From NCBI GenBank assembly GCA_032718475.1, contig JAUCBJ010008244.1, positions 1 to 64,000 of the forward strand: a DNA stretch of 64,000 bases, written 5' to 3'. This document shows positions 5,925 to 40,541 of this stretch, piece after piece (within the stretch, counting starts at the first letter, position 1; every line of letters starts with the position of its first letter). This stretch comes from Nemertoderma westbladi (Eukaryota; Animalia; Xenacoelomorpha). The notes under the pieces were generated by a model. It saw nothing but the letters and a program-made list of their open reading frames with translations. It searched no databases and had not been told where the DNA came from. Position numbers and translations under genes: made by a program.

Positions 5925-5947
5925 CTGATTAGTCTTTACAGAAATAG

Positions 5948-8900
5948 TTTAGAGAACTACCCCGTTCCAACTTATATAATTTAGAGAACAACCTTGTTCC
6001 AACTTATATAATTTAGAGAACTACCCCGTTCCAACGTATATAATTTAGAGAACTACCCCGTTCCAACCTATATAATTTAGAGAACTACCCCGTTCCAACT
6101 TATATAATTTAGAGAACTACCCCGTTCCAACGTATATAATTTAGAGACCTACCCCGTTCCAACTTATATAATTTGGAGAACTACCCCGTTCCAACTTATA
6201 TAATTTAGAGAACTACCCCGTTCCAACTTATATAATTTAGAGAATTACCCCGTTCCAACGTATATAATTTAGAGACCTACCCCGTTCCAACTTATATAAT
6301 TTAGAGAACTACCCCGTTCCAACTTATATAATTTAGAGAACTACCCAGTTCCAACTTATATAATTTAGAGAACTACCCCGTTCCAACTTATATAATTTAG
6401 AGAACTACCCCGTTCCAACTTATATAATTTAGAGAACTACCCCGTTCCAACTTATATAATTTAGAGAACTACCCCGTTCCAACTTATATAATTTAGAGAA
6501 CTACCCCGTTCCAACTTATATAATTTAGAGAACTACCCCGTTCCAACTTATATAATTTAGAGAACTACCCCGTTCCAACTTATATAATTTAGAGAACTAC
6601 CCCGTTCCAACTTATATAATTTAGAGAACTATCCAGTTCCAACTTATATAATTTAGAGAACTACCCCGTTCCAACTTATATAATTTAGAGAACTACCCCG
6701 TTCCAACTTATATAATTTAGAGAACTACCCCGTTCCAACTTATATAATTTAGAGAACTACCCCGTTCCAACTTATATAATTTAGAGAACTACCCCGTTCC
6801 AACTTATATAATTTAGAGAACTACCCCGTTCCAACTTATATAATTTAGAGAACTACCCCGTTCCAACTTATATAATTTAGAGAACTACCCCGTTCCAACT
6901 TATATAATTTAGAGAACTACCCCGTTCCAACCTATATAATTTAGAGAACTACCCCGTTCCAACTTATATAATTTAGAGAACTACCCCGTTCCAACTTATA
7001 TAATTTAGAGAACTACCCCGTTCCAACTTATATAATTTAGAGAACTACCCCGTTCCAACCTATATAATTTAGAGAACTACCCCGTTCCAACTTATATAAT
7101 TTAGAGAACTACCCCGTTCCAACTTATATAATTTAGAGAACTACCCCGTTCCAACCTATATAATTTAGAGAACTACCCCGTTCCAACTTATATAATTTAG
7201 AGAACTACCCCGTTCCAACCTATATAATTTAGAGAACTACCCCGTTCCAACTTATATAATTTAGAGAACTACCCCGTTCCAACTTATATAATTTAGAGAA
7301 CTACCCCGTTCCAACCTATATAATTTAGAGAACTACCCCGTTCCAACCTATATAATTTAGAGAACTACCCCGTTCCAACTTATATAATTTAGAGAACTAC
7401 CCCGTTCCAACCTATATAATTTAGAGAGCTACCCCGTTCCAACCTATATAATTTAGAGAACTACCCCGTTCCAACTTATATAATTTAGAGAACTACCCCG
7501 TTCCAACTTATATAATTTAGAGAACTACCCCGTTCCAACCTATATAATTTAGAGAACTACCCCGTTCCAACTTATATAATTTAGAGAACTACCCCGTTCC
7601 AACCTATATAATTTAGAGAACTACCCCGTTCCAACTTATATAATTTAGAGAACTACCCCGTTCCAACTTATATAATTTAGAGAACTACCCCGTTCCAACT
7701 TATATAATTTAGAGAACTACCCCGTTCCAACTTATATAATTTAGAGAACTACCCCGTTCCAACTTATATAATTTAGAGAACTACCCCGTTCCAACTTATA
7801 TAATTTAGAGAACTACCCCGTTCCAACCTATATAATTTAGAGAACTACCCCGTTCCAACTTATATAATTTAGAGAACTACCCCGTTCCAACTTATATAAT
7901 TTAGAGAACTACCCCGTTCCAACCTATATAATTTAGAGAACTACCCCGTTCCAACTTATATAATTTAGAGAACTACCCCGTTCCAACCTATATAATTTAG
8001 AGAACTACCCCGTTCCAACTTATATAATTTAGAGAACTACCCCGTTCCAACTTATATAATTTAGAGAACTACCCCGTTCCAACTTATATAATTTAGAGAA
8101 CTACCCCGTTCCAACTTATATAATTTAGAGAACTACCCCGTTCCAACTTATATAATTTAGAGAACTACCCCGTTCCAACTTATATAATTTAGAGAACTAC
8201 CCCGTTCCAACTTATATAATTTAGAGAACAACCCCGTTCCAACTTATATAATTTAGAGAACTACCCCGTTCCAACCTATATAATTTAGAGAACTACCCCG
8301 TTCCAACTTATATAATTTAGAGAACTACCCCGTTCCAACTAATATAATTTAGAGAACTACCCCGTTCCAACTTATATAATTTAGAGAACTACCCCGTTCC
8401 AACTTATATAATTTAGAGAACTACCCCGTTCCAACTTATATAATTTAGAGAACTACCCCGTTCCAACTTATATAATTTAGAGAACTACCCCGTTCCAACT
8501 TATATAATTTAGAGAACTACCCCGTTCCAACTTATATAATTTAGAGAACTACCCCGTTCCAACCTATATAATTTAGAGACCTACCCCGTTCCAAATTATA
8601 TAATTTAGAGAACTACCCCGTTCCAACTTATATAATTTAGAGAACTACCCCGTTCCAACTAATATAATTTAGAGAACTACCCCGTTCCAACTTATATAAT
8701 TTAGAGAACTACCCCGTTCCAACTTATATAATTTAGAGAACTACCCCGTTCCAACTTATATAATTTAGAGAACTACCCCGTTCCAACCTATATAATTTAG
8801 AGACCTACCCCGTTCCAACTTATATAATTTAGAGAACTACCCCGTTCCAACTTATATAATTTAGAGAACTACCCCGTTCCAACTTATATAATTTAGAGAA

Positions 8901-9010
8901 CTACCCCGTTCCAACTTATATAATTTAGAGAACTACCCCGTTCCAACTTATATAATTTAGAGAACTACCCCGTTCCAACTTATATAATTTAGAGAACTAC
9001 CCCGTTCCAA
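5948..9010. repeat. 32-bp tandem minisatellite, roughly 96 copies
   Basis: Unit TTAGAGAACTACCCCGTTCCAACTTATATAAT, very homogeneous. Confidence 0.98.
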
Positions 9011-9073: not shown

Positions 9074-9866
9074 TTACTACTACTAGGTCGAGCGAACTCA
9101 GACAGTGGAAATGAGATCCTTCCAGGCTTCCCGATTCTCCATAGTTGTCGCAATTACGTTTCTCCCTAGTTCACTATCCCTTTCAAGTTGATCTATATAT
9201 ATGTTATGGCCGGTCGTCCACGACTACGCTTTCCATGAGTTGGTTGCCAGAAAAGTATATCTGGTATGACCTCGTCTTTACTTCTCCAGCAGTGCCCACT
9301 GAATCTTAATCTGCGTTCACGGAGGGTGGTTGATACAGGCGGTATTGTACCATAAAGCTCGGCGTTTGTCATGTGTTGTCTCAAGCTGATGTTTAGGGTT
9401 GCCCTTAGTAGTCTTGTGTAGCAACCATAAATTCGTTGTTCAAGTGATTTAGTCAGTGTCCAGGTCTCACCCCCGTATAAAAATACACTTTCCACTGTGG
9501 CTCGAAAGAACTTACTCTTCAGGTGCCTGGAGAGATCTGATTTCGAGATGGCATCCATTTTTGATAGAGCTACCCAAGCCTTTGCTTTCCTAACTTCTAT
9601 GTCCTTTTTGCTACTCTCTATCCATGATCCAAGGTACTGGAAGTCGTCGACCTTCCTTAGTTGATTATTATCAATTGTTGTCAAGTTTCCATTAACATTA
9701 AAAGTCATGAATTCGGTCTTGGTAGCATTTATATGCAATCTAACCTCCTTAGCAGCCCTCTCCACTTTATTCCGTAGAAACTGTGCATCTGCTGGCGTTA
9801 CAGCGAGCAGGGCGATGTCATCCGCAAAGTCTGTGTCTGTGACTGTAGTTGCCGGATATCTACTAC
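9074..9866 (-). mobile_element. RTE-clade non-LTR retrotransposon, 3' part (RT C-terminus)
   Basis: ORF 9193-9765 (FQYLGS, YGGETWTLTK, RLRFSGH, RSRGRP); DFADDIALL at ~9810-9835; short (TAG)n tail near 9074-9085. Confidence 0.9.
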
Positions 9867-9994
9867 TATAGAATTATATTCCCTAAATGCCGTGGATTTT
9901 CAAAATTTTTATTTTATTCGAATTAACTTTGTAAAAGATTACTTTGAGTCCTCATTTGTATTTGATTTATCATTTGTACGACCTTTAGTCAAGT

Positions 9995-10081
9995 GGTTCA
10001 GTAGCTCAGTCGGTAGAGCGTTGGAAATTATATGTGTAGTAGGTATTGAGTTCGAATCCTAGTAAGCGCGAATTATTTTTT
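9995..10081 (+). ncRNA. tRNA-derived Pol III-type unit in the LTR (second copy 24481-24567); not an intact tRNA
   Basis: A box and D-arm TAGCTCAGTCGGTAGAGC, B box GAGTTCGAATCC, T6 run at 10076-10081; acceptor and anticodon stems do not pair. Confidence 0.6.
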
Positions 10082-10147
10082 GTGCAGAATTTCAACTCAT
10101 TTAAATTGACCGCTACAAATTAAATTGCATTTGTCTGTACCTAGATT

Positions 10148-10424
10148 AACCAATGAGACTGTAGTTATTTGATTGTAACCAATGTCGTGCAAGTTATATA
10201 TTAGCTGGACCAATAGTTATCTTTAAAAACCTGTTAGAACCTATAGAACAATCGAGAATTTTCTCGATTGATTGCAGCACAAATTTGCTATATAAAGGTG
10301 CGATTTGTTCATTAGTTATCAATCTTAATCTATCTCTCTATATTCAATTATTCTGAGTTATCTGATATTTGTTTATTCTGTTATTAGTATTCAGATTACA
10401 TTTTGTATAATTATCTGCAATAAA
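10148..10424 (+). promoter_or_regulatory. Putative LTR Pol II promoter and poly(A) signal
   Basis: Three CCAAT boxes (~10150, 10179, 10210), palindrome 10249-10270, TATATAAA 10289-10296, AATAAA ~10419. Confidence 0.55.
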
Positions 10425-12577
10425 TTCAGAAATACCGCTATCTGCTGTTCTTTCACCATGATTCACTACGGTGAACAAACTTAAGAACAGGATGGCCGGC
10501 TAGAGATCGGGCCGCAGCAATGAACGGGAACATCGGGGGAATGTAGACAAGAGACAACCCGCAATACCATCTCAGTTATTCGCCCATCGCCTGAAAGGTT
10601 AGACAGCGTTCGACGCCTTGCTACCTAAGTGTAAGACCAAAGATCAAAAGGTAGAAGTATTGACACGCTGTGAGCCTAAAATTACATCTTAGGGACTGTA
10701 CTGTCTTGATTCAGGAAAAAACCACAGTAGACCTTCACATTCCTACGGGGGGAGAGCAGGCAGATACTAGTACGCAGATAGGACATAGGCACACCGGTAC
10801 GAAGCATACACATTGGTAGGGTGCAGCAAACTGTACGCCTAACTCTTGCTAAGTACAGGTGCGTTTGCGACTATTTGTGGTACAACGGTGTCCATTGCAT
10901 TAGAACTTGTAGGCTAGGAAGGTTGTTGTGTTTCACCTGAATTGGGATTGTACCGTTCAGGCGGTAGGGCAGTTTACAACTAGGCGCAAATAAATTGAGG
11001 CTATTAGGGATATACTAACATCTACCGTGTCCCCACCAACGTCCTAATAGGAAGTTACCCAGCCTACCTAGGTGACTAAAATTCTAGATAGGAAGCCAGG
11101 ATAGCTATTAGTAACTGTACGCCTACAGTAGTAAACTAACACATTTCTTCTTAGTATTAGGGGCCTGGTAAATTAAAATTGCCGAATTCTGGGCGTAGCA
11201 TTAACCTTATGCCTGAATTTGAGTCCTGGAAATACGCAAGAGGGGAAGGAACCTTATCATTCGTGAGTATTGGACCTACAAGTTACAAAATTAGAATATT
11301 CGTAAAATGCACACCGTACCCAGTAATTATATATGTGAAGGAGCAAAACTGTTTTGACCGTTCAGAATTAACACACGCGCGTTAGAAATTATTTACACCT
11401 CAAAATATATAAAATTAACTTTTGTCCGTACTGTGCTTTGCCCGCTAGTTAGACATCTCCAAATCTCTGCCTCTGTACCTAGCTAGCGTCCCTTCGCCCA
11501 ACCATATAAATCACACCGCGGCAAAGTATACGAGCCCCTTAGTCCGTCAGTGAGTCAGCCTGATTTTAGGATTCGCTGCGCGGGATTTTGTTTTATCGAA
11601 GTTTGTCTGCTCGTAGACTGTTTTCTGCCTCACCGGTTATAAGAGATCGATACTGCAATATATTCGCTTACTTAGAGTTTACTGTTTTGGTGAGAAGGTC
11701 GGATTTATGATTTGATTCACAAACTTTACAGTAAGATATTGCAGGTATTGTTACTGTCTCTTCCATATAGTAGGAATGTGTTTTACTGAACTACGGTTCG
11801 GTAGGACTAAAGTTATTTGAAAATTTTGTATTTTGAGGTAAAAATTTATATTTGATTAGCTAAGTGCTAATTTTTTGAAATAAAATTTGATTTGAACCGC
11901 GTGTAAAATATTTTTGGAATTGAATACCGGTGTTTAAAAGGGTTTAAATACCATATTGTACCGGTACAAAATTTTCGTAAAAGTAAAACCTAACTCTTTT
12001 TTTTTTCAGGATTCAGTTCTCATTTCTAGACTGTAACGGGAGCAAGACCGTGTTTAGCAAGTTTGGGAGATAGATAACTCAACAACTTTGGTTGGGAAAA
12101 TCGCGCTTCGTCCGCAACGCTGAAAACGGAAAGGTTCACGTCCGGTTTGTATCTGGGAATCTGTTTTTCTGGAGAATTATTGGAGTGGGTGAGTTCGAAA
12201 AGTTGCATAAATAAGTTAGGCATTACCGTATTAGTTAAAATTATTGTGGGTTCCACTGTCTCAAGTATTTATGCATTCCGTATGATTTCTTTGTTCATTG
12301 CTGAATTAGTCCGTATTATTGTATTTAATTTACCTTTTGATAACGCATATCGTTATCCGATTTATTTGTTATAAAATTGGCCGCTAGGCTAATTTTATTA
12401 TATACTTATTCCGTGACATTTATTTACTGTAAAATTGGCCGTCTAGGCTAATTTTATCCATCTGCTATAAAATCGGCCGGTAGGCTAATTTTATATGACT
12501 GTAATTAGTACCGTTTAGATAAAATACGGTAAATTTGATACTTTGACACTCACTTTACTTGACTTACAACTACCGAA

Positions 12578-15500
12578 ATGAGTGACAAACAAGACTATAC
12601 GAAGAATACACAAACCGACTATGACTCATGCGACGGAGATAAGTCAGCAGCGGAAGAACAACAGGGGAAGACTCGCGAGCCTACCGAACCTACACCGTGT
12701 GCGTCACCAGTACATCCAACGGGAGTACCGGATGCCGTAGTACGAGGCGACGGCAGGACCGAGGACTTTCTAACTGTTCCGCAACCTAGATACAGGGAAA
12801 CGGACATGGTAAGTTCAGTAGGAAGCCAGGAGAGCGTAGTTAGAAGCGTCGGCGGTTACATGGCGCATATTACCAGGAGTATTGGAGAAGGCCAATGCAT
12901 ATTAGACAAGTTAACTGCTCCGATGTCTCGGTTCGAGTTCTACACTCTACAGGTGAGAGTACAGAGTAAAGTATATAAGTCCGTAGATAACCTAATTGGT
13001 CTACAAGATCTAGCTAGACAGAGACAGGATATGGACACTCAGCTTAGAATCCTCGAGGAACTAATGATCGCTAGAGAGAAACTGATTCAGTTTAAGTCGA
13101 CGATTAGACAGATACAACAGGAACAAGCGGACCAGTTGTTAGGTGAGTCAGTTTCGGACGAATTATTGCAACCCGAGGAAGAACAGGAACTGTACCGACT
13201 GGATGGACAATTGAAACACCTAACGGATCACTTACGCATGTGCGGCGAGGACGTCGGAGATTGGGAAACCGTGCCGGAGGCTACGAGGGAAACTTCGCTC
13301 GCACAAATCGAAACGGCACCGGGAACACTAGATCAATCACTGGTGAGTATTCGCAGCGAAATTGGCGAGGTGAGTATGGCTACGTCAGAAATTGCTCGAC
13401 AACAGCAGATCTACAGACAACAACAGGAGTGGGAGGAACAAACTCAATTACTAATGGCACAAGTAGCAGCAGAAGAAGAGAAACTACGCGTTGCGAATGT
13501 TGCGAGAATCTCTCACCTGCAAGAACAAGCTGAGTTGGAAGTAGCCGAAATGGAAAGGTTAGAGTTGGACATTGCACAACAAGCGGCAGCGGCCGAGTTA
13601 GCGCAACGAACGGCAGCGGCCGAGTTAGAGCGACAAGCGGCAGCGGCCGAGTTAGAGCGACAAGCGGCAGCGGCAGCGGCAGCGGCAGCGTCCGAGTTAG
13701 AGCGACAAAGATTAGCTTCAGAAGCGAGAACCGAAATGAAAAAACGGCAAATAAAGGCTCAATCAGCGATACGACAAGCGGAGTTCGAGGCGCAACAACA
13801 ACAAACGGAACAACGTGAGAAAGAAGTTAAACTTCGTTTCGAACTCGAGAAGAAGGCGAGAGAATTAGCCAACGCCAAGGAAGACCTGGATCTACAAGCC
13901 CGCGATCGATCAATGAGATCTCGAGACGGACATGACTTGGACCAGATAGAGGTAAGACATCGCCAAATTCAGGAACGGAAGAAGGAAGGAAGCGTAGGAG
14001 CACCCGGACGGGAACGACAATTAGTAAAGGACTTGTGTCAACGATTCCCACAGGTAACTCATATGTTTGCACCAGTTACGACTAAGGAACCTGTTTCGAT
14101 TGCGGGTAGTAGTAACATTTCTCCTATCCATGGTGCGGCGGAACACAGGTTTGTTATTCCGGACAAGTTTACACCGCCAAGAGCAACGTCGTCGCCTATT
14201 CCGAAAGTCAAGGTAAGTAACCCACCGACTACCGATCGTAGTAGTTTATTGACCGGACCTGCACTACTAACGACAAAACAGCAGAGTCCACCTTTGACAC
14301 CTAAACCCGTTACGCACTACGAATACCCAATTACGTTTCGGCCTACAAGGCCAGTTGATTCAAAAGCGGTTATTCGACCACCGGTCCAGTTTACATCGCA
14401 ATCTACGACTTCGAGGAAGACTTGTGAGCCTACCGAACAACGGAGACCAGTGGATACGCGACCGTTCAACCAGTTTACATCGCAATCTACGACTTCGAGG
14501 AGGACTTGTGAGCCTACCGAACAACGGAGATCAGTGGACGATGTTCCGAAACGAAACGTGAGAATTCGTACGACGCAACGGACACGAGCACGTCGACCAC
14601 CATATCCAGATGATAGTAGTACTTCGAGCGAATCGGATTACCCGAAACGCGAGGTATTTAGAACAGGGGCGGCCGATGAATATAAACGCGAGCGTTCAGA
14701 TAACTCCTTTGTAGACAATCCTCCACAGAATACACCAACACAGAAGGCGTTACAACCAACGGACGCAATCAGTACACAACAGTTCGCCGACATCCTGCGA
14801 CCAGTTGTTAACAAGTTGGCTCAGATCGAGGAGCGTCTGGAGGAAGTTCAAACCGATAGTTCGAGGAACACTGAATTCGAACACGATAGACACCCGAAGG
14901 AACCACAAAGACCGGTACCTTCAAAACACACATCGTATCAGGGAAAAGCGCCAAGAAGGGATATCAACCAGATTACCAACCAAGGACGCGAAACTCTGAA
15001 CGTTGCCGAGGAAATAGCGAAATTCGCAGCTAGACAAGGATTGCCGGTACAACAACCACCGAAGTTTTCCGGTAGCTCAAAACACTGGCACACATTCGTA
15101 GACTATATCGAATCTCAGATCGCCGTGTGCGCCTTTACATCACGGGAGAAGTTTAATTACCTGCTTCAAACGTTGTCAGGAGAACCTAAACGTTTGGCGG
15201 AGACCTTTGTTGGTGTACCGGACGCTTTCGAACTAGCGTACGATCGTTTAACTTCGATATACGGAGGTACAGTCAGCATGGCCAGGTCAGTGATAGAGGA
15301 ACTCTGTAAGGGAGGGGCTATCACTAAACCCGTCGACTTATTAAAACTGGCTGACGAGATAAAGAATGCTATCACTACTTTGAGATCCATTGGACAACTT
15401 GACTACGGGAATACCCCTACAGTCCTATTAAAGATCATAGGACGACTCCACCATCGACTTCGTCGGGAGTGGAGGAAGATCGAATACCAGCGGGAAGAGC

Positions 15501-18500
15501 GGGGTGGATTCTTAAAACTGGAGGATGTGTACCTTTTGATATCCAGGGAGGCAGTGGTAGAAACTCGATCCAACTACACTGACCAGCACATCGTGGCAGA
15601 AGGAATCACCTTGCCATCCTCAAACCGACAAAAACCCCAGACAACATCCACTAAGACGGCCACTTACGCCACACCGACGGAATCACGACAATTCTCGGAC
15701 GGTAGTAGGGTATCTGCGCCCATTGGGACAAAACAGACGAGACAGCAACTCAGTACCGACTTCAGCGGCTGCCAATACTGCGAGCATTTGGGCAAGCGGT
15801 ATATCGGTCACAAGTTGAGAGGTTGTCGACAGTTTCGCGAGTTAAACTCGGAAGAACGACGGCTGCAGATACGGCCATTGGACTCTTGTTGGCGGTGTAC
15901 GCGACACGGACACGTCCGTAAAGATTGCCCAAATACCGACACTTGTCCATCCTGTGGACGCAACCACGACGGTCTGCTCCACACAGACAGCCACACACCG
16001 ACAAAACGCTTCGCCAGGGAACACCCGGAAGCAGCAGCGAGATGTGATGCGGCCTACAGAAATCGAGAATCGAAAACGACTCCAACCTTTGTGACACATA
16101 TAAAGGATTGCTTCTCAGAACAATCCGGATCGTCGGACGAAGAGTCAGAAGACGACGACGTATATTCTGATGGAGACGAACAACCATCGATCGCGCTTCT
16201 GACGACTGACCAACTAAAGGGATTCAGCGTAATTCCGATCAAGATTACTGGCACAAAGGGGAGCAAGAGAATCTACACTATCCTGGATTCAGCCTCATCT
16301 CACAGCTACGTGGATGAGCAGATAGCTGACGTAGTGACGGATCTCAGACACGGTAAGCGCGTCAGTTACACCGTAAGTAGTATGCACGGACAACGTGCAA
16401 TACCAGTGACACGAGTTAAGTTGGACTTAGACTCTCTTCTTCCAAAATCGCAACACAGCGAGAGGGAGAGGTCTTTGTTACCCTTCAAGGATTTGACTTT
16501 TGCGGCCACCAAAGACTTTAGTAACCTACTAGGTCCGGTCCCAGAACAATCCTTGGAGGACCGTAAGTATTTCAGACACCTTGGTGTACCTGAATGTCCT
16601 GTCAATTATCGATCGGTAGCCATGCTGATCAGGACAGACCAATTCAACCTACATCAAGTGTGGGAAACCAGACCATCGGCAGTCGTGGCGGGAAACGCAT
16701 ACGCCTGCAGAACGCCGATAGGGTGGTATACTCGAGCGCCTGTGCGCACACTGGACATAAGTGACGAGGAAGACGATGTACAAAGTACATGTAGTCTATT
16801 AACTACAAATTCAATTCATTCCTTTTCACACGACATGGACCATACTACCTTACATACAAAACATGACAGACGTGTAACCAGTATGATAAGTCACAAGGAG
16901 CAGCTAATCCACCAGGTGAGTTTAGAACTTGGGGAGAAGACGAGTCAGCTAGAGATTCCATCGACGACAGATGATAACGCCGGAAGGCTTGCGAGTCTAC
17001 CTACCCCAACAACCTCAACAATGCCCATCGATATCGATGATGACGCGTTGAGAAATCATCAATTGGAACAAGCTGTATTGGACAAAGAATTAACGGAGAA
17101 GACTATCAGGTGGTTAGAACAAGATACAGCTGAACCTGGTAGCTACGAACCATGTATGTCGGAACAAGATAAACAATCTTTGAGGATCATGGAAGATACT
17201 ATCCGCCAGACGGAGGACGGACATTATGAGGTAGGGATGTTATGGCGTAGCCAAAATCCTAAACTTATAAATAACTACCCACTGGCTTTAAGACGTCTAC
17301 ACTCAATACGACAACGTCTATTAAAGGACGAGAAAGCCCATCTGCAGTACAACACTCAGATGGAGACGTATTTGACTAAGGGATACGCTATCCGAATGAC
17401 TAACCCAGAGATAGTGACTAACCAGACATACTACCTGCCACATCACTATGTGAGACACCCCGACAAACCAGACAAAGTACGTGTAGTCAATGACTGTGCG
17501 GCTCTGTTTGAGGGAATGTCCCTCAATAGCGAGTTGATGGATGGACCAAACATGAATAATTATCTTATGGGGGTGATTATGCGCTTCCGTCAGCGTCAAG
17601 TAGCCTTTACTTGTGACGTTGAAGCTATGTTTCACCAAGTGAGAGCGTTAGAGCGAGACAGAGACAGTTTGAGGTTCCTCTGGTACCCGGAAGGAGACTT
17701 AAGTCTACCACCGGCGACTTACCAAATGCAAGTTCGCGTTTTCGGTGCCAGGGACAGCCCAAACTGTACGATGTACGCCCTAAAGCAAGCCGCTAGAGAT
17801 CAGAAACACCTGTATGACCCAGAGATAATTAGGATTGTGGAACGTGACTTTTACGTCGACGACGGTTTACAGAGTTGCGACACAGTAGAATGTGCTACAA
17901 CAGTAGCACATCAATTACGGGACTGCTTAGCGGGCGGAGGTTTTAACCTCACCAAATTCGCCTCAAACAGTGCCGAATTAGTAGACTCATTCGGAACGAC
18001 TGAGCGTGGAGGTGGTGACATAGACCTAGAGTTCGAACCACTACCGACGACCAAGGTGTTGGGGCTCTTTTGGGACCCAAACACGGATAACTTTCGAGTG
18101 AAGGTGAGACTGGACAGTCAAGAAAACACACTGACAAAGAGATCATGCTTGTCAAAGTTGAGCCGATTGTTCGATCCATTAGGATTCATCAGTCCAATAA
18201 TACTGCAAGCCCGCATTTATATGCGCAGTATTTGGAAGGATGGACTGACATGGGACGAGCCGATCTCATCAGACCAAGTGGACTTATGGAAGACCTGGGA
18301 GGCAGAATTATCTTCGCTAGAGGATTATTCCATACCCAGAGTCTACTTTCCATTACAAACAACATTTCCTGACAACTTGGAATTACATTGTTTTTCCGAC
18401 GCCAGTGACAACGGTTTTGGTGTGGCAGCGTACTTGCGCAGACAAGTAGACTCAGAAGAATTCGATGTTTCGCTCATTACTTCTAAGGCAAAAACAATGC

Positions 18501-21085
18501 CTACTAAGTACATGACGACACCACGAGCTGAGCTACAAGCCGCAACACTATCAACCACAATTGTGAACCTTATACAGACGGAACTACAGTCAAGTTTACA
18601 GATATTTTATTGGACTGACGCGACGTTGGTTTTATTTTACATAAACAACGACACACTTGAATTCAAGACATTCGTAGCTAACCGTCGCGCAGAAATTCTA
18701 GACCGTTCAATAAAGGAAGATTGGCGACATTGTCCCGGACCACAAAACCCAGCCGATATTGCGTCGCGAGGAATGATGCCTGAGGAATTCTGTAAACCGG
18801 AGAACAAAGAATTTTGGCAACACGGTCCCCAATTCTTGCAGAAATCGACACAAGATTGGCCACCGTTATACGACAACAAGTCTAACACTATCCCTAAGGA
18901 CGCGGAAATCAAGAAACCAAAAAAGGGGAAGGCAAAGAAAAAGACGACGGCGGCAAAACTCAAGAAAAAACCGAAGGCGAAATGGAAAGATATAACTTCA
19001 AAGGTCAAGAGAGGAAGACTTGCGAGCCTTTCTACACCAGACATATCGCCAGACGGTCAACCAGACACGTTACTAGACGGTCAACCAGACATTTTGCCAG
19101 ACATGTCACAAAATGTTCTACCAGACACTAGTAACATACTGACAAATAGTAAAGCCGCAGTTTCCCTATTGGAGCGGCCTTGTATTGACAAACTACCAAT
19201 TTTGACACACTTGAGCAACCATAAGCACGGTGAAACCTCATGTATTACAGATGTGGGTAGTACCTACGCTAATGTAAATACAGGTGTTACTCTGCGCTCA
19301 AGAGACATACCAAACTTGCAACCTATGGTGAGACCTGGGATTAATGTCGGCAGAAAAATAAGTTTACCGAAACCTGCTGACCCCATAGAGTTCAAACCAC
19401 CATTAACGATCGACTTACAAAGTACCGACAATCAAGGTAAGAAGACGAAGAAGGACAAATTACTTGTAGACCCGGACGGATCAACAGTCAACAAGGGAAT
19501 ACTTACCGGCGGACCCGTGGGCCCTTCTAGTAATTCAAAACCTTCCAAATTCTTTGACTTACCTGATGACGTCACAAATACTTACGTCGACCGTATTGTA
19601 AACCTAACAGACTCTTGGTCAAACGCTTGCCGAAAATTAGCGTGGATTGTAAGTTTTGTACAATACGTTAAAGGCAAACGAGACTTTACACGTCGACTTA
19701 CATTGGCTGAGATTGACAGGTGTGAAATTAAATTAATTAGCCATTACCAACTGCGATATTTCGCGATATATCTATAAATCAAGGTCAACCAATCAAGTCG
19801 TCACCAATACTGAGTTGGAGTCCGATTATTTATAATGGCTTAATTTGTCATAAATCTCGGCTTCAAAACATTGACTTTAACACAAATTTTAGATACCCAA
19901 TAATAATACCGCAACACCACGAACTACAACGTGCAATGATACTGGACGCACATTTACATCTGAAACACGCTGGAAGACACCACTGTCTTTCCTACTTACG
20001 TACAAGATTTGTATTAATTAGACCCAGTAAAGCGTTAAGTTCAGTGACACGTACGTGTATTATTTGTAAAAAGGTACATTCTAGAATAGGTACCCAAGAA
20101 ATGAGTGAACTTCCACAAGCACGACTTCAAGCATTCAGACCACCTTTTACAGAGACTGGAATTGATTGCTTTGGTCCCATACATACGAAACGTGGACGTA
20201 TACTAGTAAAACGCTGGGGACTGATTTTCACATGTATGTCCAGTAGGGCAGTTCATATTGAACGTGTGATGGATCTTTCCACCAAAGCGTTTATACTAGC
20301 ATTGCGGCGATTTATCGCTAGACGCGGACTAGTGAAATGCTTGTACTCAGACCAAGGGACAAACTTTGTTGGTGCTCGAAATGAGATTGCTAGAGCCTTT
20401 AAGAAATTAGATCATGATCAAATCTCGAACGAACTACAACCTCACAAGATTGTTTGGAAGTTTAATCCTCCAGATAGTCCTTGGAGAGGCGGAGTCTGGG
20501 AGAGATTGATTAGATCTATAAAGACGGCAATGGCAAAAGTCATTCCAGTAAACCACATATTGACAGACGACCAACTGACAACACTGTTTGTTGAAATCGA
20601 GGCAATACTAAATACTAGACCAATAGTATTAGTACCCGATGACAAACAATCTCAGTTTGCTTTGACACCGGCACACCTGCTTATGCAGGCACCGACCACA
20701 TTGACGCCTATTTCTATTCCAATAGAAAGCGATAGCTACGGTAGAAAAGCGTGGAAAATCACGCAACTACTGGCTAACAAATTCTGGGAAATATGGCAAA
20801 ACCATTTTGCCCTCTATTTCTGCCAGAACAACTTGGTACAATAACACCCGCGCATTAAAGCCGGGAGATCACGTGCTGTTAGCGGAAGTGAATCTAAAAA
20901 GACGCTTCTGGATAACAGGTGTAATTTTAGCCACACATCCATCTATGGATGGAGTGACAAGAACTGTGACGGTACGGACAATTGACGGTCGTACAGTAGA
21001 CAGACCAACTCAACGTCTCGTACTTCTTGAAGAGACTCGTAACGAGTCTGGAGACTACAAATCTCCACCTAATACTAGTAAATAA
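12578..21085 (+). pseudogene. gag-pol: BEL/Pao gag-pol polyprotein with two frameshifts (~19770, ~20810)
   Basis: 2399-aa ORF: Pao-type gag (PKFSGSSKHW), CQYC/CWRC/CPSC knuckles, ILDSAS protease, YLPHH, FYVDD RT, FSDAS RNase H, NPADIASRG; integrase in 19936-20844 (GIDCFGP, SDQGTNF, WERLI) and C-terminus in 20807-21085. Confidence 0.95.
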
Positions 21086-21744
21086 TTAGGAGTTTACAAA
21101 TAGATTTCACGGACCTGTACACCGTAGTAAAGACAGCGGTAGAATTCCATTGTCTTTATATGTGAACATTGAGGGTAGTACCCTTATGTGTCACATAGGA
21201 GCGGGATTTGTAGGTATAAGAAATGGAATTCTACTTGGAACTCACAATATTGAGACATTTTCGAAATTTTAGACAATCCATTTGGATTTGAAAAATTTTT
21301 AAAATTTTCTCCAGTAAATAGATTTCAGGGTACAGTCGGGTGGAACTTAAAATTAGAGAAACAAGAGAGGAAGACTTGCGAGCCTTTCTTAAAATTTTAA
21401 TTAAATTTTACACGGTCTTGTTTCAATAAGTTACGTCAAAATAGACTCCCCTATATTTATTACTAATTCTTGACTGCTTATTTTCTGATAATAGTTTGGG
21501 ATCAAAAGGTGAGTATTTTAGACTCACAGCCAGTTTAGCCCAAATTCGTTTTTATTTCGGCAAAAAATTTTAGATAAGAAGCAGCGTGTCATTAAAGAAA
21601 CCCTAGATCTTAGGCTATGGGTAGGAGGTTAGAGCGTTGTCGAGCCAAAAGGGCAGACGAAAACTCTCACGTCTCCTCACAACTAACTACAACCTCTGTT
21701 GTATTCCCTCTAGTAGTAATGATTATGTAACTACACCTCTAATT

Positions 21745-23343
21745 ATGGAGAAAGGGATACAAGGAGAGCCGAGATGGGGATATGATATCCAAGAGGAGGC
21801 AGCAGCGCCATTCGAAAGATTTGGAGCTAAAGATTACACTATATTTGGAAAAAAGGAATTATCAGAAAGTACAGCGAAACTCGCGAGAACTAAATATGAC
21901 ACGACGGTATCGTGGAGGTTACGAACGAATCACGGCAGACGCGTGCGCCTATCGGTCACCTTGGTGATGATTTCGAAGTAACTACTACGATCACTGACGA
22001 TCCTTTAGAGGAACTTCTTGAGATAGAAAGGAACCTCCAGAAGAAATCTCAGACGGAGATTCGACAACTTGAAGCAACAGATGCTATAGTTTGTATACAA
22101 CCTTCAGAAACCTACCAACCCATAGACCCAGATGATTACGATTATAGTGTGGGAGGAAGCGCTCGACCGATTGGAGATCTTATATACGAACGAGTGTGGT
22201 ACCCTGCCAATACGATGTGGTAAATGTGGCGTCGCTGGACATCATATGACAAAGTGCAGTGGAAAGCACATTACTACGACTCAGCTAATCTGTGGATGGT
22301 GTGGGGATCAAGGGTCTCATACCTTTTATACTTGCTGGAGATTTATGGCTCAATGTACTTATTGCAATATAAAGGGACATCGAGCATCTGAATGCCAACT
22401 AAGAGACATACCCTATGAACACGAATCTGTAAAACTCGTGAGGAAATTATTCGATGAGTGGGAAGATTTAGCCGACGAACATGTATCGGCACAAAGAAGA
22501 CGGTTTCCGATGAGAGCGCATCTTGGATTTTGGGCGGTAAATCCTCAAACGATGATGTCGGAAGGATATATCTCCGCTATGCCCCAATATGACGAACTTA
22601 TCGAGGTAGTCGATATTTTGCCCCACGACAGCGGATTCCGAGTAGTGCGCGAGTATCTACTACAGATTCACCCGGATAACAAAAACACGTGGAATTTTCA
22701 GAAAGTCGTTAATCGCATCACGTATGGTGAATTCGATCGTTTCCGAACTGAAAAGCGGAACAAAGGAGCTTGGTTAACCGTCGCATGGGCATACCGAGCC
22801 GCGTTTTACCATAAACGTATACGAGCGAGTGTATTCGAGGAAGAGGAGGTCCTAGAGGCGACAAATCCAGCCACTCCGGTTGCGCCGTCTGCACGTCACC
22901 CTCGGGAGGACGGACAGGGTAGGATCATACGGGTCCAGAAAGTGGGCCAACAATTAAAGAAAATTATTAATATAGAAGAACGCAAGGGAGTTGAGCCGAC
23001 CATTCGAATTACTCGGGATACGGTATCGCTTCCTAGAGAACCAACAGGAGGATCGGGACACACACCAGCTGATCAAAAGGGGGCGCAAGCTGCTCTTGGG
23101 TCTGCGTCGTCCGCTTCTCGCGCGTTCCCAGACGTTCTACCAACTGTAGTGACAACTGATCGGTCACGAGGAATCGGTCGAGGTTTTGGGATGCCAAATA
23201 GACGAATTTGCGAGGAAATGGTCGCACCGTCTCTCAACGTCCAAACGAAACCAGTGACTCGCCCCACAAGTCCCATATCGCGAGCAAAGTCACCTGTGCG
23301 CAGTTTTCGAGGACGCGGCAGGGCTCGATCCACTAAGCGATAA
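21745..23343 (+). CDS. Accessory 3' gene of element 1: triple CCHC zinc-knuckle protein with a basic C-terminus, spread over three overlapping frames
   Basis: CGKCGVAGHHMTKC, CGWCGDQGSHTFYTC, CTYCNIKGHRASEC; ends RSFRGRGRARSTKR; homologous to 28189-29638. Confidence 0.8.
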
Positions 23344-23455
23344 AAGGGAGGGCAAGGGTGGACGGAAGACTCGTGAGCCTTTCTTGTGAATTTGTGATTT
23401 ATTTGAATTATATGTTTTATATTTAATTAGTAAGTTTTGTATTCTGGAAAAAACT

Positions 23456-23728
23456 CATATTTAGTAAGACTTATATTTAGTAAGAATTTATATTTAGTAA
23501 GAATTTATATTTAGTAAGACTTATATTTAGTAAGAATTTATATTTAGTAAGAATTTATATTTAGTAAGAATTTATATTTAGTAAGATTTATATTTAGTAA
23601 GAATTTATATTTAGTAAGAATTTATATTTAGTAAGAATTTATATTTAGTAAGATTTATATTTAGTAAGAATTTATATTTAGTAAGAATTTATATTTAGTA
23701 AGAATTTATATTTAGTAAGATTTATATT
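23456..23728. repeat. 16-17-bp tandem repeat in the 3' UTR of element 1
   Basis: TTATATTTAGTAAGA(A)T, about 16 copies. Confidence 0.9.
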
Positions 23729-24352
23729 TTATATTTGTGATTATTCCGAACTTATGCAATTTATATTGTTCCGAATATTATGCAATTTATATCTTATAAG
23801 CAGTATTTGTATTTACAGTGAAATAGAAAGTAAGAGTAGATGGAAGACTCGTGGGCCTTTCTTATAGTTTCATTTGTAAAGTGTTATATTTTGTATTTAG
23901 AAAGTTTTATAGTTAGAAAGTTTGTGCTTAGAAAGACTCATATTTGTAATTATTCCGAACTTATGCAATCTACATTTAGGCACGAAAGTATTTGTAATTA
24001 TTTGAATTTATGCAATATTTGAGATGCAATAGTAGACGGAAGACTCGCGAGCCTTTCTTATGATTTTCATTTATTTGTATTTGTAATTATTTGAATTTAT
24101 GCAATATTGAGATGCAATAGATTTATATTGGTGAATTTAATTTCGATTTATATTGTACTTACTCAGTAAAGCCTTAACTACGTAAAGTTTGAATTTGTAA
24201 TTATTTTGTATCGAATCATTATGTAGAAAGGAAGTATTGTTTGAAATTTAATTGTAAATATGTAAGTACGCCCTAAGTATTCTATAGTTTGATTGATTAT
24301 TGGTGAAAACCGTATATTTTATGCACGATAATATCCTGTTTTCATGGAGCGG

Positions 24353-26255
24353 TATAGAATTATATTCCCTAAATGCCGTGGATTTTCAAAATTTTTATTT
24401 TATTCGAATTAACTTTGTAAAAGATTACTTTGAGTCCTCATTTGTATTTGATTTATCATTTGTACGACCTTTAGTCAAGTGGTTCAGTAGCTCAGTCGGT
24501 AGAGCGTTGGAAATTATATGTGTAGTAGGTATTGAGTTCGAATCCTAGTAAGCGCGAATTATTTTTTGTGCAGAATTTCAACTCATTTAAATTGACCGCT
24601 ACAAATTAAATTGCATTTGTCTGTACCTAGATTAACCAATGAGACTGTAGTTATTTGATTGTAACCAATGTCGTGCAAGTTATATATTAGCTGGACCAAT
24701 AGTTATCTTTAAAAACCTGTTAGAACCTATAGAACAATCGAGAATTTTCTCGATTGATTGCAGCACAAATTTGCTATATAAAGGTGCGATTTGTTCATTA
24801 GTTATCAATCTTAATCTATCTCTCTATATTCAATTATTCTGAGTTATCTGATATTTGTTTATTCTGTTATTAGTATTCAGATTACATTTTGTATAATTAT
24901 CTGCAATAAATTCAGAAATACCGCTATCTGCTTTTCTTTCACCATGATTCACTACGGTGAACAAACTTAAGATCAGGATGGCCGGCTAGAGATCGGGCCG
25001 CAGCAATGAACGGGAACATCGGGGGAATGTAGACAAGAGACAACCCGCAATACCATCTCAGTTATTCGCCCATCGCCTGAAAGGTTGGACAGCGTTCGAC
25101 GCCTTGCTACCTAAGTGTAAGACCAAAGATCAAAAGGTAGAAGTAGTGACACGCTGTGAGCCTAAAATTACATCTTAGGGACTGTACTGTCTTGATTCAG
25201 GAAAAAACCACAGTAGACCTTCACATTCCTACGGGGGGAGAGCAGGCAGATACTAGTACGCAGATAGGACGTAGGCACACCAGTACGAAGCATACACATT
25301 GGTAGGGTGCAGCAAACTGTACGCCTAACTCTTGCTAAGTACAGGTGCGTTTGCGACTATTTGTGGTACAACGGTGTCCATTGCATTAGAACTTGTAGGC
25401 TAGGAAGGTTGTTGTGTTTCACCTGAATTGGGATTGTACCGTTCAGGCGGTAGGGCAGTTTACAACTAGGCGCAAATAAATTGAGGCTATTAGGGATATA
25501 CTAACATCTACCGTGTCCCCGCCAACGTCCTAATAGGAAGTTACCCAGCCTACCTAGGTGACTAAAATTCTAGATAGGAAGCCAGGATAGCTATTAGTAA
25601 CTGTACGCCTACAGTAGTAAACTAACACATTTCTTCTTAGTATTAGGGGCCTGGTAAATTAAAATTGCCGAATTCTGGGCGTAGCATTAACCTTATGCCT
25701 GAATTTGAGTCCTGGAAATACGCAAGAGGGGAAGGAACCTTATCATTCGTGAGTATTGGACCTACAAGTTACAAAATTAGAATATTCGTAAAATGCACAC
25801 CGTACCCAGTAATTATATATGTGAAGGAGCAAAACTGTTTTGACCGTTCAGAATTAACACACGCGCGTTAGAAATTATTTACACCTCAAAATATATAAAA
25901 TTAACTTTTGTCCGTACTGTGCTTTGCCCGCTAGTTAGACATCTCCAAATCTCTGCCTCTGTACCTAGCTAGCGTCCCTTCGCCCAACCATATAAATCAC
26001 ACCGCGGCAAAGTATACGAGCCCCTTAGTCCGTCAGTGAGTCAGCCTGATTTTAGGATTCGCTGCGCAGGATTTTGTTTTATCGAAGTTTGTCTGCTCGT
26101 AGACTGTTTTCTGCCTCACCGGTTATAAGAGATCGATACTGCAATATATTCGCTTACTTAGAGTTTACTGTTTTGGTGAGAAGGTCGGATTTATGATTTG
26201 ATTCACAAACTTTACAGTAAGATATTGCAGGTATTGTTACTGTCTCTTCCATATA
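24353..26255 (+). repeat. 3' LTR of element 1
   Basis: Direct repeat of 9867-11769. Confidence 0.97.
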
Positions 26256-26450
26256 ACTACTTTTGCGTTCTTGTAGTGTGAATCCCAGATCTTCACCCTT
26301 TGTGGCCGTCCTGATTGCGTAATCCAGTACAATTACAAAAATAGTAATGGCGCCATTGTGTCACCTTTGCAGTACGCCAGCCAGGATTGAGAAGAACTCA
26401 GTTTCACCATCTGGTGAGAGTACCTGCGCTTCTGTGTCACAATATAACAC
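26256..26450 (-). mobile_element. RTE-clade LINE, middle RT fragment
   Basis: Translates VLYCDTEAQVLSPDGETEFFSILAGVLQ...FVIVLDYAIR...QERKSS, and continues into RYPATTVTDTDFADD at 9866. Confidence 0.9.
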
Positions 26451-26839: not shown

Positions 26840-28110
26840 TGTACGCGCTTTTGAAGACCTTTAGCAGTTTAACCTGCCAAAATTTATATGTCTTTTTGGT
26901 TTACAAATAGACTTTAGAAGTTGACAAATATTTAATACCAATAAACACAACATTAGCAGAAGCCAGCCTAGTGCGCGTCCATTCACCCGCTGGATATACC
27001 CGGGGGGCTGGATTCTGAGGGCTTAGATTATTATTGCAGTGTAAGCTTACTGTATTGTATTATTCGATTGATCGTTAATAAATAATTTCTGACTAATATT
27101 ATTTACTTTCGGGAAATATTAACAGTTCCTTTAGGACGTGGCGCTCTATCTAGGTAAACAGAGATATGACTTATACTAATCACAACGGTAAGTCGGTAAG
27201 GCTTATGATTCACGTATGAGGCGCATTCTTTAGGAAATGCTTAGTTATCAGTAACAATCAGGCACACTACCGGTAACACACAATACTGCTCACTAATTTG
27301 CAGACCGTCAATGAATTTTATCATATATAAAGAGAACAGCAACGGACCCATGTAGTGCTTATCAAATAGCATTAAATTCACTACAAACCACAATAATATA
27401 AGTCGCAATCGCTATATATAACCCGTCTCTCTAACCTGTAGTGTATCAAGAAAATTGGGAAATTTGGGTTCTTTATTAATGTTCTCCAAATAATATTCAA
27501 CCAACTAATACAAAATATGACAACAGTAAAACATTAAGACGGTAGGTTAAGATATGATATGACAAGTAATGATATGTGATATATGACATAGACTGGACTG
27601 ATAACAGTTATACGCTCTATAATCTTGAGCCTACTAATGTTTCTTCTAAAGTATGAAAACGAATTGATTCTAGAGCCGGTGTTCCTGGCCTAGATAGAAG
27701 GAACACAACAGTATCACAAAAACAGTAAGACTGAACACTCCTAGTATGATCGGCCGAATATCTCCACATCAACAGAAAAAATCGCTCTGATTGGCTTAAG
27801 CTAAACAAAGAACCATGTGTCCAATGGCCGTTTCCATGTCAGCAACCAGCTGTTAGATGTCGTAATCTGAATCATCAAGGCTAAGCTGTGTAAAGGTATT
27901 TGGTGCATTGCAGGTTTTTTGCCTTACCATGTCCGCCAAAACACGTATATAGAAGAATGACTGTTATGTCCGTTAAAACACCTATAACGGTACCTTGCGG
28001 GCGAGGGGAATATATATATAGTTAGAGAGCCTTTTAGAGTATTCCAGCGCCTGGGGGGAAACTGGATTGCGAAGCAAAAGGGCCAGTTATATCCCACAGA
28101 AGCTTTTACA
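26840..28110 (-). repeat. 3' LTR of element 2 (1271 bp)
   Basis: Near-identical to 36574-37839 (about 5 substitutions and one 5-bp indel). Confidence 0.96.
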
Positions 28111-28188: not shown

Positions 28189-29638
28189 TTAGTCTTTCTT
28201 GCGCGGACGGCGTTTACGCAGTTTTTTAAAGCTAGCCAGAGTCCTTTTCTCTTTGGGGCGAGCCACTTTACAAGGAGGGCTATAACTCCTGGGTGAAGGG
28301 TGCAATATGATTGCATCAGAGGGTGTAGGATTATGGTCGGTGTATCCGCCAGTCGAAGTACCGGGTTGATTGACATCAACGTCAGGTGAGAGGGGTCTAA
28401 CGGCTTTGAGAGCTCGTTTCAAGACAGCCGCTCTTACGGGTCCTTTACGAGTGGTCTGAACGAGGGCCGTGGGTGGACCATAGGCAGTTAGAAACCTCCG
28501 GGGTTTAATGGTTCTTTCCAACTCGCGTTCGCGGGCTCGGTATTCGTAAGGCCGTCGATATACTTCCTGTAACTCGGGGTGTGAGTTAACAAACAAGTCT
28601 CCATAGTCCGGATCCTGACGGATATAATTGATTAAGTTATAGGAATGAAGGTCGCTAGGATTAACACTCCTGAGAAATTTGCGTACGAATTTGGTTGAAA
28701 TACATTCTCCGACGCGCTTCAGTAGCTCGTAACTTGATATGCGTGATTTCTGTTCAACCGAAGCAAATAGATAAGGATGGAACGCATAAACTCCTTCGTA
28801 AGCGCGTCCGGGATAATAGCGATGGCGCGAATCACAATGTAAATCAGCGTTCGCTTCCCAAGCTCTGATGTAACGTAGTGTGATCATTTCATCTACGCTT
28901 TCCAAATCGTGATTAAAAGGGCAGTCGAAACTGGCATGTCCCTTTAGTTGACAATGGTGACATTGAGTCATAAATTGAGGGCAAACCGCAAAGATATGCA
29001 AGTTATTGAGTCTGCAATATGCGCAATAAATTTCCATAGTCGGTTGTTCTTGGAAATAGGAACAGCGGACGTTGGTGTCCATGGGCGTATCGTGGTCTCT
29101 CGATGCGCATAACCGACAACGTTGCCGAGAAACATAGTTGGCATGGCGATAATTGTACGCAGTGAGACACTGTGGACCTTGATACCATTCTAGGATGTAA
29201 TCGTTGTCGCTGTTCCGGGGCGCGATAGGCTGAATCTCCTCAGATTCTAGGCATATTGGTTCGTCTTCCCAGTCTGTTACGAATAGAATTTTCGTGATCT
29301 ATTCTCGGTTTACCGTTACGACTCCGCTGGGTATGATATTTAAATAGAACCATTTCCCTTTCGGTGTCTACATCGTCCGTATCATGTAAATCGATAGGAT
29401 GGCCGGTCGTTAAGAAGTCCATATACGTACCATTACGATTCGTATAGCGAGTGGTGAATTTTCGATAGTCCAATTCACGCGCAAGTTGCTCTTGGGACAT
29501 CGGCGGTTCGATATAACGACCATCGTCCTCCGTAATGGTTGGATCGGCTTCACCGCGTATTAAGCTATCCACAAATGCTTGTAAAGGTAGAGTATATCGC
29601 TCCCTAATACCAAGATCATCTTCTATCAACTCCGTCAT
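28189..29638 (-). CDS. Accessory 3' zinc-knuckle gene of element 2 (two overlapping frames, switch near 29240-29300)
   Basis: The 297-aa ORF frame stays open upstream of its Met to ~29298 and adds CRLCASRDH; then CAYCRLNNLHIFAVC and CHHCQLKGHASFDC; ends KKLRKRRPRKKD. Confidence 0.8.
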
Positions 29639-34200: not shown

Positions 34201-34343
34201 GCCATTGCCTCTGCCGCCTTTCTTTCCGCTTCTGCTGTTGCCATTGCCTCTGCCATCTTCCTTTCAAGACCCTGTCCAAGTCTAAGACTCATTCTAACAC
34301 CTTCCAAAAGACTATCTGACAGTGCCCGTTTTGTGTCAGACAT
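31269..34343 (-). CDS. gag: BEL/Pao Gag-protease fused in frame to the end of the RNase H region; RT and integrase absent
   Basis: KFNGDEMKW, CALC/CYHC/CAKC knuckles, LLDSGS, then directly WRHCLGTINPADIASRG; 13-aa AEAMATAEAERKA repeats at the N-terminus. Confidence 0.9.
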   Translation of the reverse strand: MSDTKRALSDSLLEGVRMSLRLGQGLERKMAEAMATAEAERKAAEAMATAEAERKAAETMATAEAERKAAEAMATVEAERKIETPVLPEPAYKFPLYSTKLPVPSRTVPESEPVLDAERDIKNLSPVVSRSPATTLATPASAVEWVAEGRREMGLLLEQLREHCLCSSQQVREMEETVQQLKGTVRESRLELQKVQQSIALERDKLVNLQKGIPPPPVTMCQPVRSEVSHAQGVEPTRIYTASEVETPIVNPIQGDYKPVDNNIPYRPDHNPRNLYTDNSIFNNTMAQESFTRQMARTEARQAVKVGEIVKFNGDEMKWLPFNEYYKDNIQNSVLSNGEKLRYLIECLEGPPKLMALKFIGHPDGLRQVWDTLNIRYGNRTNIARYLYAKLMAPRKFLSSGIIEFSDEIQEICRQLDWLGESHEYQNSMVVGALASTLPKGGVGTRWDKKVLYMMEQQQRDPTMADLMSFLDSEVKLQLIKQSREKTSENKVSEKPVSRRRVTPVCYTDDGESQVSQEEDSGKDTAKSYYDNKTYKDVSKYKSRTSDRREQVTTTPPTSPKRIHGRKPEERTRVHNVTQGKVSNIKPKCALCDGPHRLSVCAEFLKKSPVDRREVMWDKRLCYHCLRPGHQRRTCYSEVKCAKCGAKHHILLRSEFERNNPSQVSEPELHVQFSDVNDTDQESEMEGFYTDEFSDANESCYLINTAVYRALTYENDTDNEFPPTTFDRQPSWKAPTSNIGIREFPVVQVRVHGPNKSYIVNALLDSGSTGTFIDQELAEDIFAGQPKFRTKLNMSGIMQVWKSTITADYYVGARLKIPRFQTDYPGVQILIGQNAHEALETLEKRPAQPQPLQTYAVRTRVGWYFTGPSRRTLKERLPQQQVYQVKEWEVESSNVDDPTEGTPYSSDNDDINSNVDQWRHCLGTINPADIASRGATPQELIDNPGWLGGSDFLSKEEEEWPPHLTTTEIRQAKGAEKVTQQLNRPAGRLCLLERDRKLSGNYGRQDTLPTTTSLIRQISRDSIT

Positions 34344-36170: not shown

Positions 36171-36573
36171 AACAACAATCCGACAACAGTCCGGCCTACA
36201 ATTATCTGAACAATCTGAGCAGACTTACACGTCTTCAGCTCAATATTAACTTACATGTAAATAAAACCGACAGAAATAAGTAAAATCTCAATAAAAAACC
36301 AGGGCGGCCGTCCCTGATTAAATACTAAGACCTACCAGTATACTATAATCAAAATCGAATAATACTAATGTACTTATACTGGAAGTACCGGTTAGGACAG
36401 TTGGGCCTACGGACCTACAGAAGTACCGGTTCTGGCAGTTGGACCTACGGACCTACAGCAGTACCGGTTCTGGCAGTTGGGCCTACTGACCTACAGAAGT
36501 ACCGGTTCAGGTTTACCGATCGACCGGTACTTTCAACTTTATTGCTTACTGCAATAAAGACAATAACTGTTAT

Positions 36574-40420: not shown

Positions 40421-40508
40421 ACCGGTAATATAGTTAGTTATACTTGATACTTGATATTTATTTCTTTCTGCTGGTTACATATTAAATACATATTAACAAC
40501 ACCACCCC

Positions 40509-40541
<33 letters not shown>

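Follow-up and report, generated by a model that had tools for sequence, protein, structure and literature searches.

Self-priming, in which copying starts from a piece of the element's own RNA, is described for the retrotransposons Tf1 and Tf2 of Schizosaccharomyces pombe in the openly available text of several reports (PMC7175516, PMC5341516, PMC5443660, PMC3601003), one of which states that RNase H of Tf1 cuts between bases 11 and 12 (PMC7175516). In the available part of a further source, the same behavior is predicted from sequence for Tcn1 and for the plant Ty1/copia TAR lineage, represented by Houba and Osr-1 (PMC6317226). Fungal GalEa elements are described in an available excerpt as having a hairpin site and no primer-binding site (PBS; PMC5445492). 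For Belpaoviridae, the ICTV gives priming by host tRNA-Arg or tRNA-Gly at an 18-nt site, LTRs of 0.2–1.2 kb and genomes of 4.2–10 kb (PMC8742986). The available portions of five BEL/Pao surveys mention neither PBS, tRNA, nor priming (PMC554778, PMC3118150, PMC6238403, PMC2774666, PMC8556966); those of two other papers treat the PBS only in general terms (PMC8220671) or concern gypsy elements (PMC13524379). The literature covered, with few subscription journals, Repbase reports or bioRxiv supplements, contains no account of BEL/Pao self-priming, and an earlier description is possible. The BEL/Pao element Cer7 of Caenorhabditis elegans reportedly encodes its own primer, a separate tRNA-like RNA from the internal region and not an LTR segment paired to a site.

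The window analyzed here is a stretch of 64,000 nt from Nemertoderma westbladi (contig JAUCBJ010008244.1). Its + strand carries a young BEL/Pao retrotransposon, designated element 1, at 9867–26255 (16,389 bp). The 5' LTR (9867–11769, +) and the 3' LTR (24353–26255, +) are each 1903 bp in length and differ by 8 mismatches over 1903 bp, 0 of which fall within 10736–10746. The LTR termini are TA...TA (9867–9871, 11765–11769), not TG...CA; TG...TA termini were seen in two relatives, L001 and L030. A 5-bp target duplication, ACTAC, is present at 9862–9866 and 26256–26260, and a contig of sequencing run X1 (share 0.17), which is probably DNA, joins 9861 to 26256, so that the empty site fixes the ends of element 1. 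Contigs of this run cover neither 10736–10746 nor 11770–11780. Another LTR end, which would place the terminus at CA (11764–11765) and leave a 4-nt spacer, was rejected because both LTRs contain the bases concerned and the empty site agrees with an end at 11769. The element sits in an older RT-bearing repeat (9084–9861 and 26256–26449, with RVT_1 on the minus strand), the uninterrupted form of which is present in run X1.

The gag-pol frame (12563–19777, +; first ATG at 12578) encodes DUF1759, zinc knuckles, a protease motif, the RT motif YVDD, RNase H acidic motifs and Pfam Peptidase_A17, with the protease, RT and RNase H motifs following in order within this main frame and Pfam matches to PF05380 (E 2e-42) and PF03564 (E 6e-11). 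The integrase (19741–20844, +) lies in a frame different from that of pol and its C-terminal part in yet another; this copy is broken at the integrase, where the frames are split. It is followed by an extra ORF with three CCHC-like knuckles (22126–23343, +), the upstream part of which is in other frames, and by a purine-rich tract (24346–24352, +) that adjoins the 3' LTR. Among the matches listed, the closest proteins are BEL/Pao polyproteins of 39–44% identity; PF05380 occurs in all 120 homologues listed, and those that are named come from cnidarians, molluscs, sea urchins and one nemertean, with one more filed under a bacterial name. The BEL/Pao arrangement, with the order PR-RT-RH-IN between two LTRs and a target duplication, is present, and by its gag and pol proteins element 1 is a BEL/Pao element. 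It resembles Belpaoviridae/Semotivirus in its PR-RT-RH-IN gag-pol order, LTRs, polypurine tract and animal-type relatives, but departs from the ICTV profile in having no site for a tRNA 3' end, in its 1903-bp LTRs and in its overall length of 16,389 bp (PMC8742986).

The initial annotation held that element 1 has no tRNA PBS, and no TGG follows the 5' LTR. Instead, the 11 nt that adjoin the LTR (11770–11780, +), which start with GT, are the exact reverse complement, without spacer, of a segment of the element's own LTR at 10736–10746 (+), as that annotation had also claimed. This 11-nt candidate self-primer ends in AC and has its 3' LTR copy at 25222–25232. When the LTR was dinucleotide-shuffled 5000 times, 2 shuffles gave a match of this length, and 314 of 123,960 positions in the window (0.25%) have such a match in the preceding 1903 nt. 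A gypsy element in the same window (51801–56644; 208-bp LTRs, DUF7041 gag) served as an internal control: it has an ordinary TGG-type tRNA site and no self-match. The two LTRs of element 1 are identical at the partner segment, and consequently no within-family compensatory change is seen. ARAGORN detected no tRNA across the window, and Rfam gave no match over 9800–12600. A tRNA-like stretch with A-box and B-box look-alikes occurs at 9995–10065 (and 24481–24551), within U3 of element 1; in the window, its copies are confined to the two LTRs of this element. The sequence evidence, including that from the relatives described below, suggests with a probability of roughly 0.7 that element 1 primes reverse transcription with 10736–10746 of its own RNA, cut after 10746, and not with a tRNA; derivation of the primer from the element itself is very probable.

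A second BEL-type element in the window, element 2, lies on the minus strand and is very divergent from element 1, with a gag-protease frame (31269–34376, −; DUF1759) that is 22% identical to its counterpart and with RT absent. Its 5' LTR (36574–37839, −) is 1266 bp long, with TG...CA ends and a 5-bp target duplication, and its 3' LTR (26840–28110, −) is 1271 bp long; all 7 bases of the purine-rich tract of element 1 are identical in element 2. The 11 nt adjoining the 5' LTR (36563–36573, −) are exactly complementary to positions 500–510 of the same LTR (37330–37340, −), a candidate self-primer that ends in AT, is unlike that of element 1 in its letters and lies 756 nt from the LTR end. This match was reached by 6 of 5000 shuffles, and the 11-mer is nearly palindromic. 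A loose-end line of four X1 contigs keeps the 11-mer of element 2 and diverges a few bases beyond it. Other X1 contigs contain length variants of 65–212 nt at 26895–27528, in the part of the element 2 LTR from the partner to the LTR end; these variants lack GT-AG ends. In neither element does a splice junction appear to build a longer primer: that candidate was rejected, the best junction matches being 8 nt in element 1 and 6 nt in element 2. An extra CCHC-like ORF (28189–29298, −) follows the coding region of element 2, and the extra ORFs after pol of the two elements share 27% identity over 176 aa. No close relative was found: longer proteins gave none, two weak matches were found among representatives, and atlas matches stayed below 0.9 and pointed to zf-CCHC; it is a guess that this ORF encodes an RNA chaperone for the long-range duplex. 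Elsewhere in the window are 575-bp direct repeats (98%) at 38440–51317, around LINE-like endonuclease and RT fragments and a PHD-finger ORF, and tandem arrays at 251–about 5400, 5944–9010 and 59322–64000, whose repeat units measure 46 bp, 64 bp and about 1.5 kb.

Relatives were drawn from public metagenome contigs as the best 80 of 543 confirmed BEL/Pao loci (37–44% identical in RT-RNase H); viral contigs, also scanned, yielded no usable locus. Complements of the post-LTR bases were sought in each element's own LTR, both contiguously and across GT[AG]...[CT]AG junctions, at offsets of 0–5 and with Watson–Crick pairs only. The 5' LTR end was fixed by the divergence of two copies in 15 loci, of which L027 was dropped as belonging to the same family as L028, to leave the 14 loci of set 1; the ends of L019 and L076 were moved 1–2 bases to ACA, and that of L075 is less sure. 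Among these 14 loci, from the best 80 of 543, and elements 1 and 2, 15 of 16 have 10–15 Watson–Crick pairs to their own LTR; the 16th, L076, has 12 pairs with one G-U. When tested against the LTR of another element, post-LTR sequences reached 10 pairs in 12 of 240 tests, several of them between related families. None of the 14 set 1 loci has a TGG tRNA site, and the match is contiguous in 5/14 and found only across a junction in 9/14, again for relatives from the best 80 of 543 loci; the junctions have GTAAG or GTACG donors and pyrimidine-rich acceptors.

In a further 17 loci (set 2) the LTR end was not fixed, and every ACA or ATA end was tried (227 ends). A match of 10–15 nt was found at an ACA end 17–212 nt before gag in 12/17, with 11 of these spliced (best 80 of 543 loci). 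Four more matches of at least 10 nt lay elsewhere, two of them shifted repeats of true ones. L016, L041, L067 and L069, which start within about 400 nt of gag, gave no match. L036 was missed by the search and found by eye, with an AAG acceptor and 13 nt, and stands outside the counts. Since L014, L029, L060 and L063 repeat families already counted, set 2 contributed 8 new relatives, and the non-redundant set comprises 24 elements: 22 relatives together with elements 1 and 2. The counts leave out 48 other loci, including L033, L034, L038, L054, L061 and L062, in which repeats defined no LTR. L013, which is near element 1 in a quick tree, has no LTR repeat and no match. In that tree element 1 forms a long branch of unsure placement among the relatives, and spliced and contiguous forms do not cluster.

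With relatives from the best 80 of 543 loci, the 24 elements have 22 different 10-mers after the LTR. The site begins with GT in 19 elements and with AT in the other 5, and every partner accordingly ends in AC or AT. TGG is absent from the first 8 nt post-LTR in all 24, and only one of 279 pairs, a G-U, is non-Watson–Crick, in a search that itself admitted Watson–Crick pairs only. Matches start 0–5 nt after the LTR, at the fixed GT or AT, and no other primer site is present; L030, in which the longest match begins a base earlier, was given a manually chosen offset. How sharply the duplex ends on its 3' side is mostly a product of the search design and was not counted as evidence. Target duplications of 5 bp occur in three of the six relatives with both flanks, and the partner lies 62–245 nt from the LTR end in relatives (best 80 of 543 loci), compared with 1023 and 756 nt in elements 1 and 2, respectively. 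The initial annotation had supposed that relatives lacking the duplex would count against self-priming of the Tf1 kind. The opposite was found, in that 14/14 fixed-end relatives (best 80 of 543 loci), like element 2, pair their own LTR with a post-LTR sequence that differs from element to element, which supports the suggestion of self-priming. The BEL/Pao group formed by element 1, element 2 and their distant relatives thus likely starts copying with a piece of its own RNA.

In 16 of the 22 non-redundant relatives (best 80 of 543 loci), the partner is found only when the sequence is joined at a predicted intron junction; in most relatives, splicing of the 5' LTR is accordingly predicted to be needed before the partner can form. 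For 11 of these relatives, the predicted probability of the duplex is 0.67–0.99 in 8 and 0 in 3 when the RNA is spliced, and at most 0.21 in all 11 when it is unspliced. In L074, an acceptor of the 5' LTR coincides exactly with the junction, and the 3' LTR carries the joined form; the two LTRs are only 88% alike, so this may be a mixed assembly. Within this system, element 1 represents an intron-less form.

The claim that pairing in element 1 extends to both sides of the 11-mer held up in two-strand folds, in which an outer arm joins 10725–10731 (+) to 11782–11788 (+) and an inner arm (10750–10767 with 11745–11764, both +) pairs 10750–10759 with 11754–11764 and also 10763–10767 with 11745–11749. 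The terminal bases of the LTR, 11765–11769, are unpaired in this fold, as had likewise been claimed. The outer arm has 7 bp and the inner arm 15 bp, with 3 G-U pairs among the 22, and together with the 11-mer they make a composite helix of 33 bp that closes a loop of 1023 nt between the partner and the LTR end. For neither the outer arm (z −3.5) nor the inner arm (z −2.9) did any of 200 shuffles do as well. Across the 24 elements (relatives from the best 80 of 543 loci), z falls below −2 for the inner arm in 2 and for the outer arm in 6. The flanking arms are therefore particular to element 1 and not a conserved second duplex of the Tf1 type.

Folding of the region around 10700–11800, which the initial annotation had proposed as a check, bore out the pairing in part: the primer is paired with a probability of 0.82–0.99 in 5 of 10 segments and of 0.04 or less in the other 5. 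The duplex is predicted only for an RNA with its start near 10700: values were near 0 in all four segments with a start no later than 10650, among them the one that begins at the TATA-predicted start. The inner arm, scored in one register, reached at most 0.19 in 6/6. For element 2, the predicted primer pairing was at most 0.07 in 4/4 segments. The dependence of the element 1 fold on the segment chosen may reflect a nearer RNA start, an upstream intron, a chaperone or the limits of folding 1.1–1.5 kb. A weak GT donor-like site (10770) lies 2 nt beyond the end of the inner arm, whose other strand begins directly after a CAG (11742–11746). The CAG/GT near the LTR end could instead act as a donor whose use would splice out the primer site; a CAG/GT is found near the LTR end of element 2 as well. 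A strong splice-acceptor-like sequence, with a CTAAC branch-point-like motif, a long T run and CAG, occupies 11990–12009, in the stretch of leader that separates gag from the primer site.

The predicted RNA start of element 1 has a single basis, the TATA-like box TATATAAA (10289–10296, +), which would put it near 10320. This box begins 447 nt before the partner, compared with 31 nt in L018 (TATA box at L018:6627–6660, counted to the first partner base) and 68–150 nt in several other relatives. In L018 the RNA may thus begin with the primer, as it does in Tf1, and its first exon would be ~5 nt long. AATAAA occurs in element 1 both upstream of the partner (10419–10424, +; 3' LTR copy at 24905) and downstream of it (10989–10994, +; 3' LTR copy at 25475), the latter being the candidate poly(A) signal. 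Among the 22 relatives (best 80 of 543 loci), A[AT]TAAA lies 3' of the partner in 18, where 1000 shuffles gave a mean of 3.0 and a maximum of 9. It lies 5' of the partner in 1, so that element 1 differs in this respect from 21/22. The LTR of element 2 contains no A[AT]TAAA. A poly(A) signal downstream of the partner is the order needed by strand transfer after a cut and fits priming in cis. Were element 1 to be cut in cis, its transcription would need to pass the 24905 copy of the upstream AATAAA; three internal AATAAA need read-through in any case.

Priming in cis would begin when the genomic RNA pairs 10736–10746 with 11770–11780, helped by the two side arms across the 1023-nt loop. The element's RNase H would then cut after the final AC, by analogy with the cut described for Tf1 in the available text (PMC7175516), and free an RNA 3' end exactly at the LTR edge. 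From this end, RT would copy 11769 back to 10747, which comprises U5 together with the R sequence on the 3' side of the cut, and then jump to the 3' end of the RNA. As the jump would use R downstream of the cut, polyadenylation near the 10989 signal, and not near 10419, would be needed. The plus strand would then copy the primer; Tf1 reportedly retains its primer, according to the title of one study. If the site were copied from the primer during plus-strand synthesis, it would stay perfectly matched to its partner while both drift. Moreover, because copying would stop at the cut and the region upstream would be rebuilt from the unspliced 3' LTR copy, the intron of the spliced relatives would be retained.

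A primer derived from the element could also be supplied in trans, either by a second RNA copy or as a fragment with its 3' end at 10746 made by a host nuclease or small-RNA pathway. The template would then stay whole, R might lie upstream and poly(A) might be added near 10419, which suits the upstream AATAAA and unstable long-range fold of element 1 and the low cis-pairing probability of element 2. Yet an uncut, spliced template would be expected to lose its intron in each cycle, and 16/22 relatives keep theirs; the poly(A) signals downstream of the partner in 18/22 also speak against supply in trans, which is judged unlikely. The same concern with introns bears on the proposal that the 3' R copy of the 11-mer is the primer, with the far end of the RNA folding back onto the primer-binding position. 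The RNA of intron-less element 1 would carry the 11-mer at both ends if it lies in R, the LTRs being identical there, but the 16 relatives with introns would need a spliced 3' copy, and their progeny would lose the intron; this reading is accordingly very improbable.

Other readings give the duplex no part in priming or the LTR match no meaning. The duplex might be a structural switch that acts in packaging, in dimerization or between translation and packaging, with priming left, for example, to a tRNA fragment or a protein. The 33-bp composite helix made with the side arms of element 1 is what such a switch might look like, and the step from duplex to priming is itself inferred. A structural helix should nevertheless tolerate G-U pairs, of which the core has 1/279, in a Watson–Crick-only search, against 3/22 in the arms of element 1; nor need it adjoin the LTR edge, from which the matches lie 0–5 nt away with a fixed GT or AT start. 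A purely structural role is thus unlikely. Some copia elements use half tRNAs, and the site could similarly bind an internal tRNA fragment, with the match to the LTR arising by chance. However, the 24 elements have 22 different 10-mers, each of which fits its own LTR and rarely that of another, and chance alone yields the match of element 1 in 2/5000 shuffles, which leaves this reading scarcely credible.

Priming in cis is best compared with that of Tf1, among the closest known precedents for self-priming. Like Tf1/Tf2 and the Tf1/sushi group with Tcn1, as far as these are covered in the available text, element 1 has no tRNA site; what follows its 5' LTR is instead complementary to 11 bases of that element's own LTR. 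It differs from the Tf1/sushi group, which consists of Ty3/gypsy chromoviruses, in that its proteins belong to another superfamily, BEL/Pao, and in that the partner is split by a predicted intron in 16/22 of its relatives. A further difference is that the adjacent second duplex, which has z −2.9 in element 1 and is weak in whole-region folds, is not conserved across the relatives. Element 1 thus likely works as in Tf1 self-priming without membership in the Tf1/sushi group. The TAR lineage offers a parallel outside that group, in which self-priming is likewise predicted by sequence alone, although these are copia elements of plants and the available part of the source mentions no intron-built primer (PMC6317226).

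Extended to the relatives, these observations make it somewhat more probable than an even chance that a large and widespread animal branch of BEL/Pao has lost tRNA priming. Its members would cut a primer ending in AC or AU from their own R, and in most of them the spliceosome would assemble this primer from two exons of the 5' LTR, so that the spliced 5' end alone primes; elements 1 and 2 would be derivatives with long LTRs and no intron, in which additional helices span distances of up to 1 kb. The exact RNA ends predicted at 10746/10747 could be tested by one sequencing experiment. For annotation, the complement of the post-LTR bases should be sought in the LTR, across introns as well. If true, the proposal would explain why a recognizable primer site is missing from many BEL/Pao elements, and it would make BEL/Pao the third superfamily of LTR elements with self-priming, here from an internal primer that most relatives would build by splicing.
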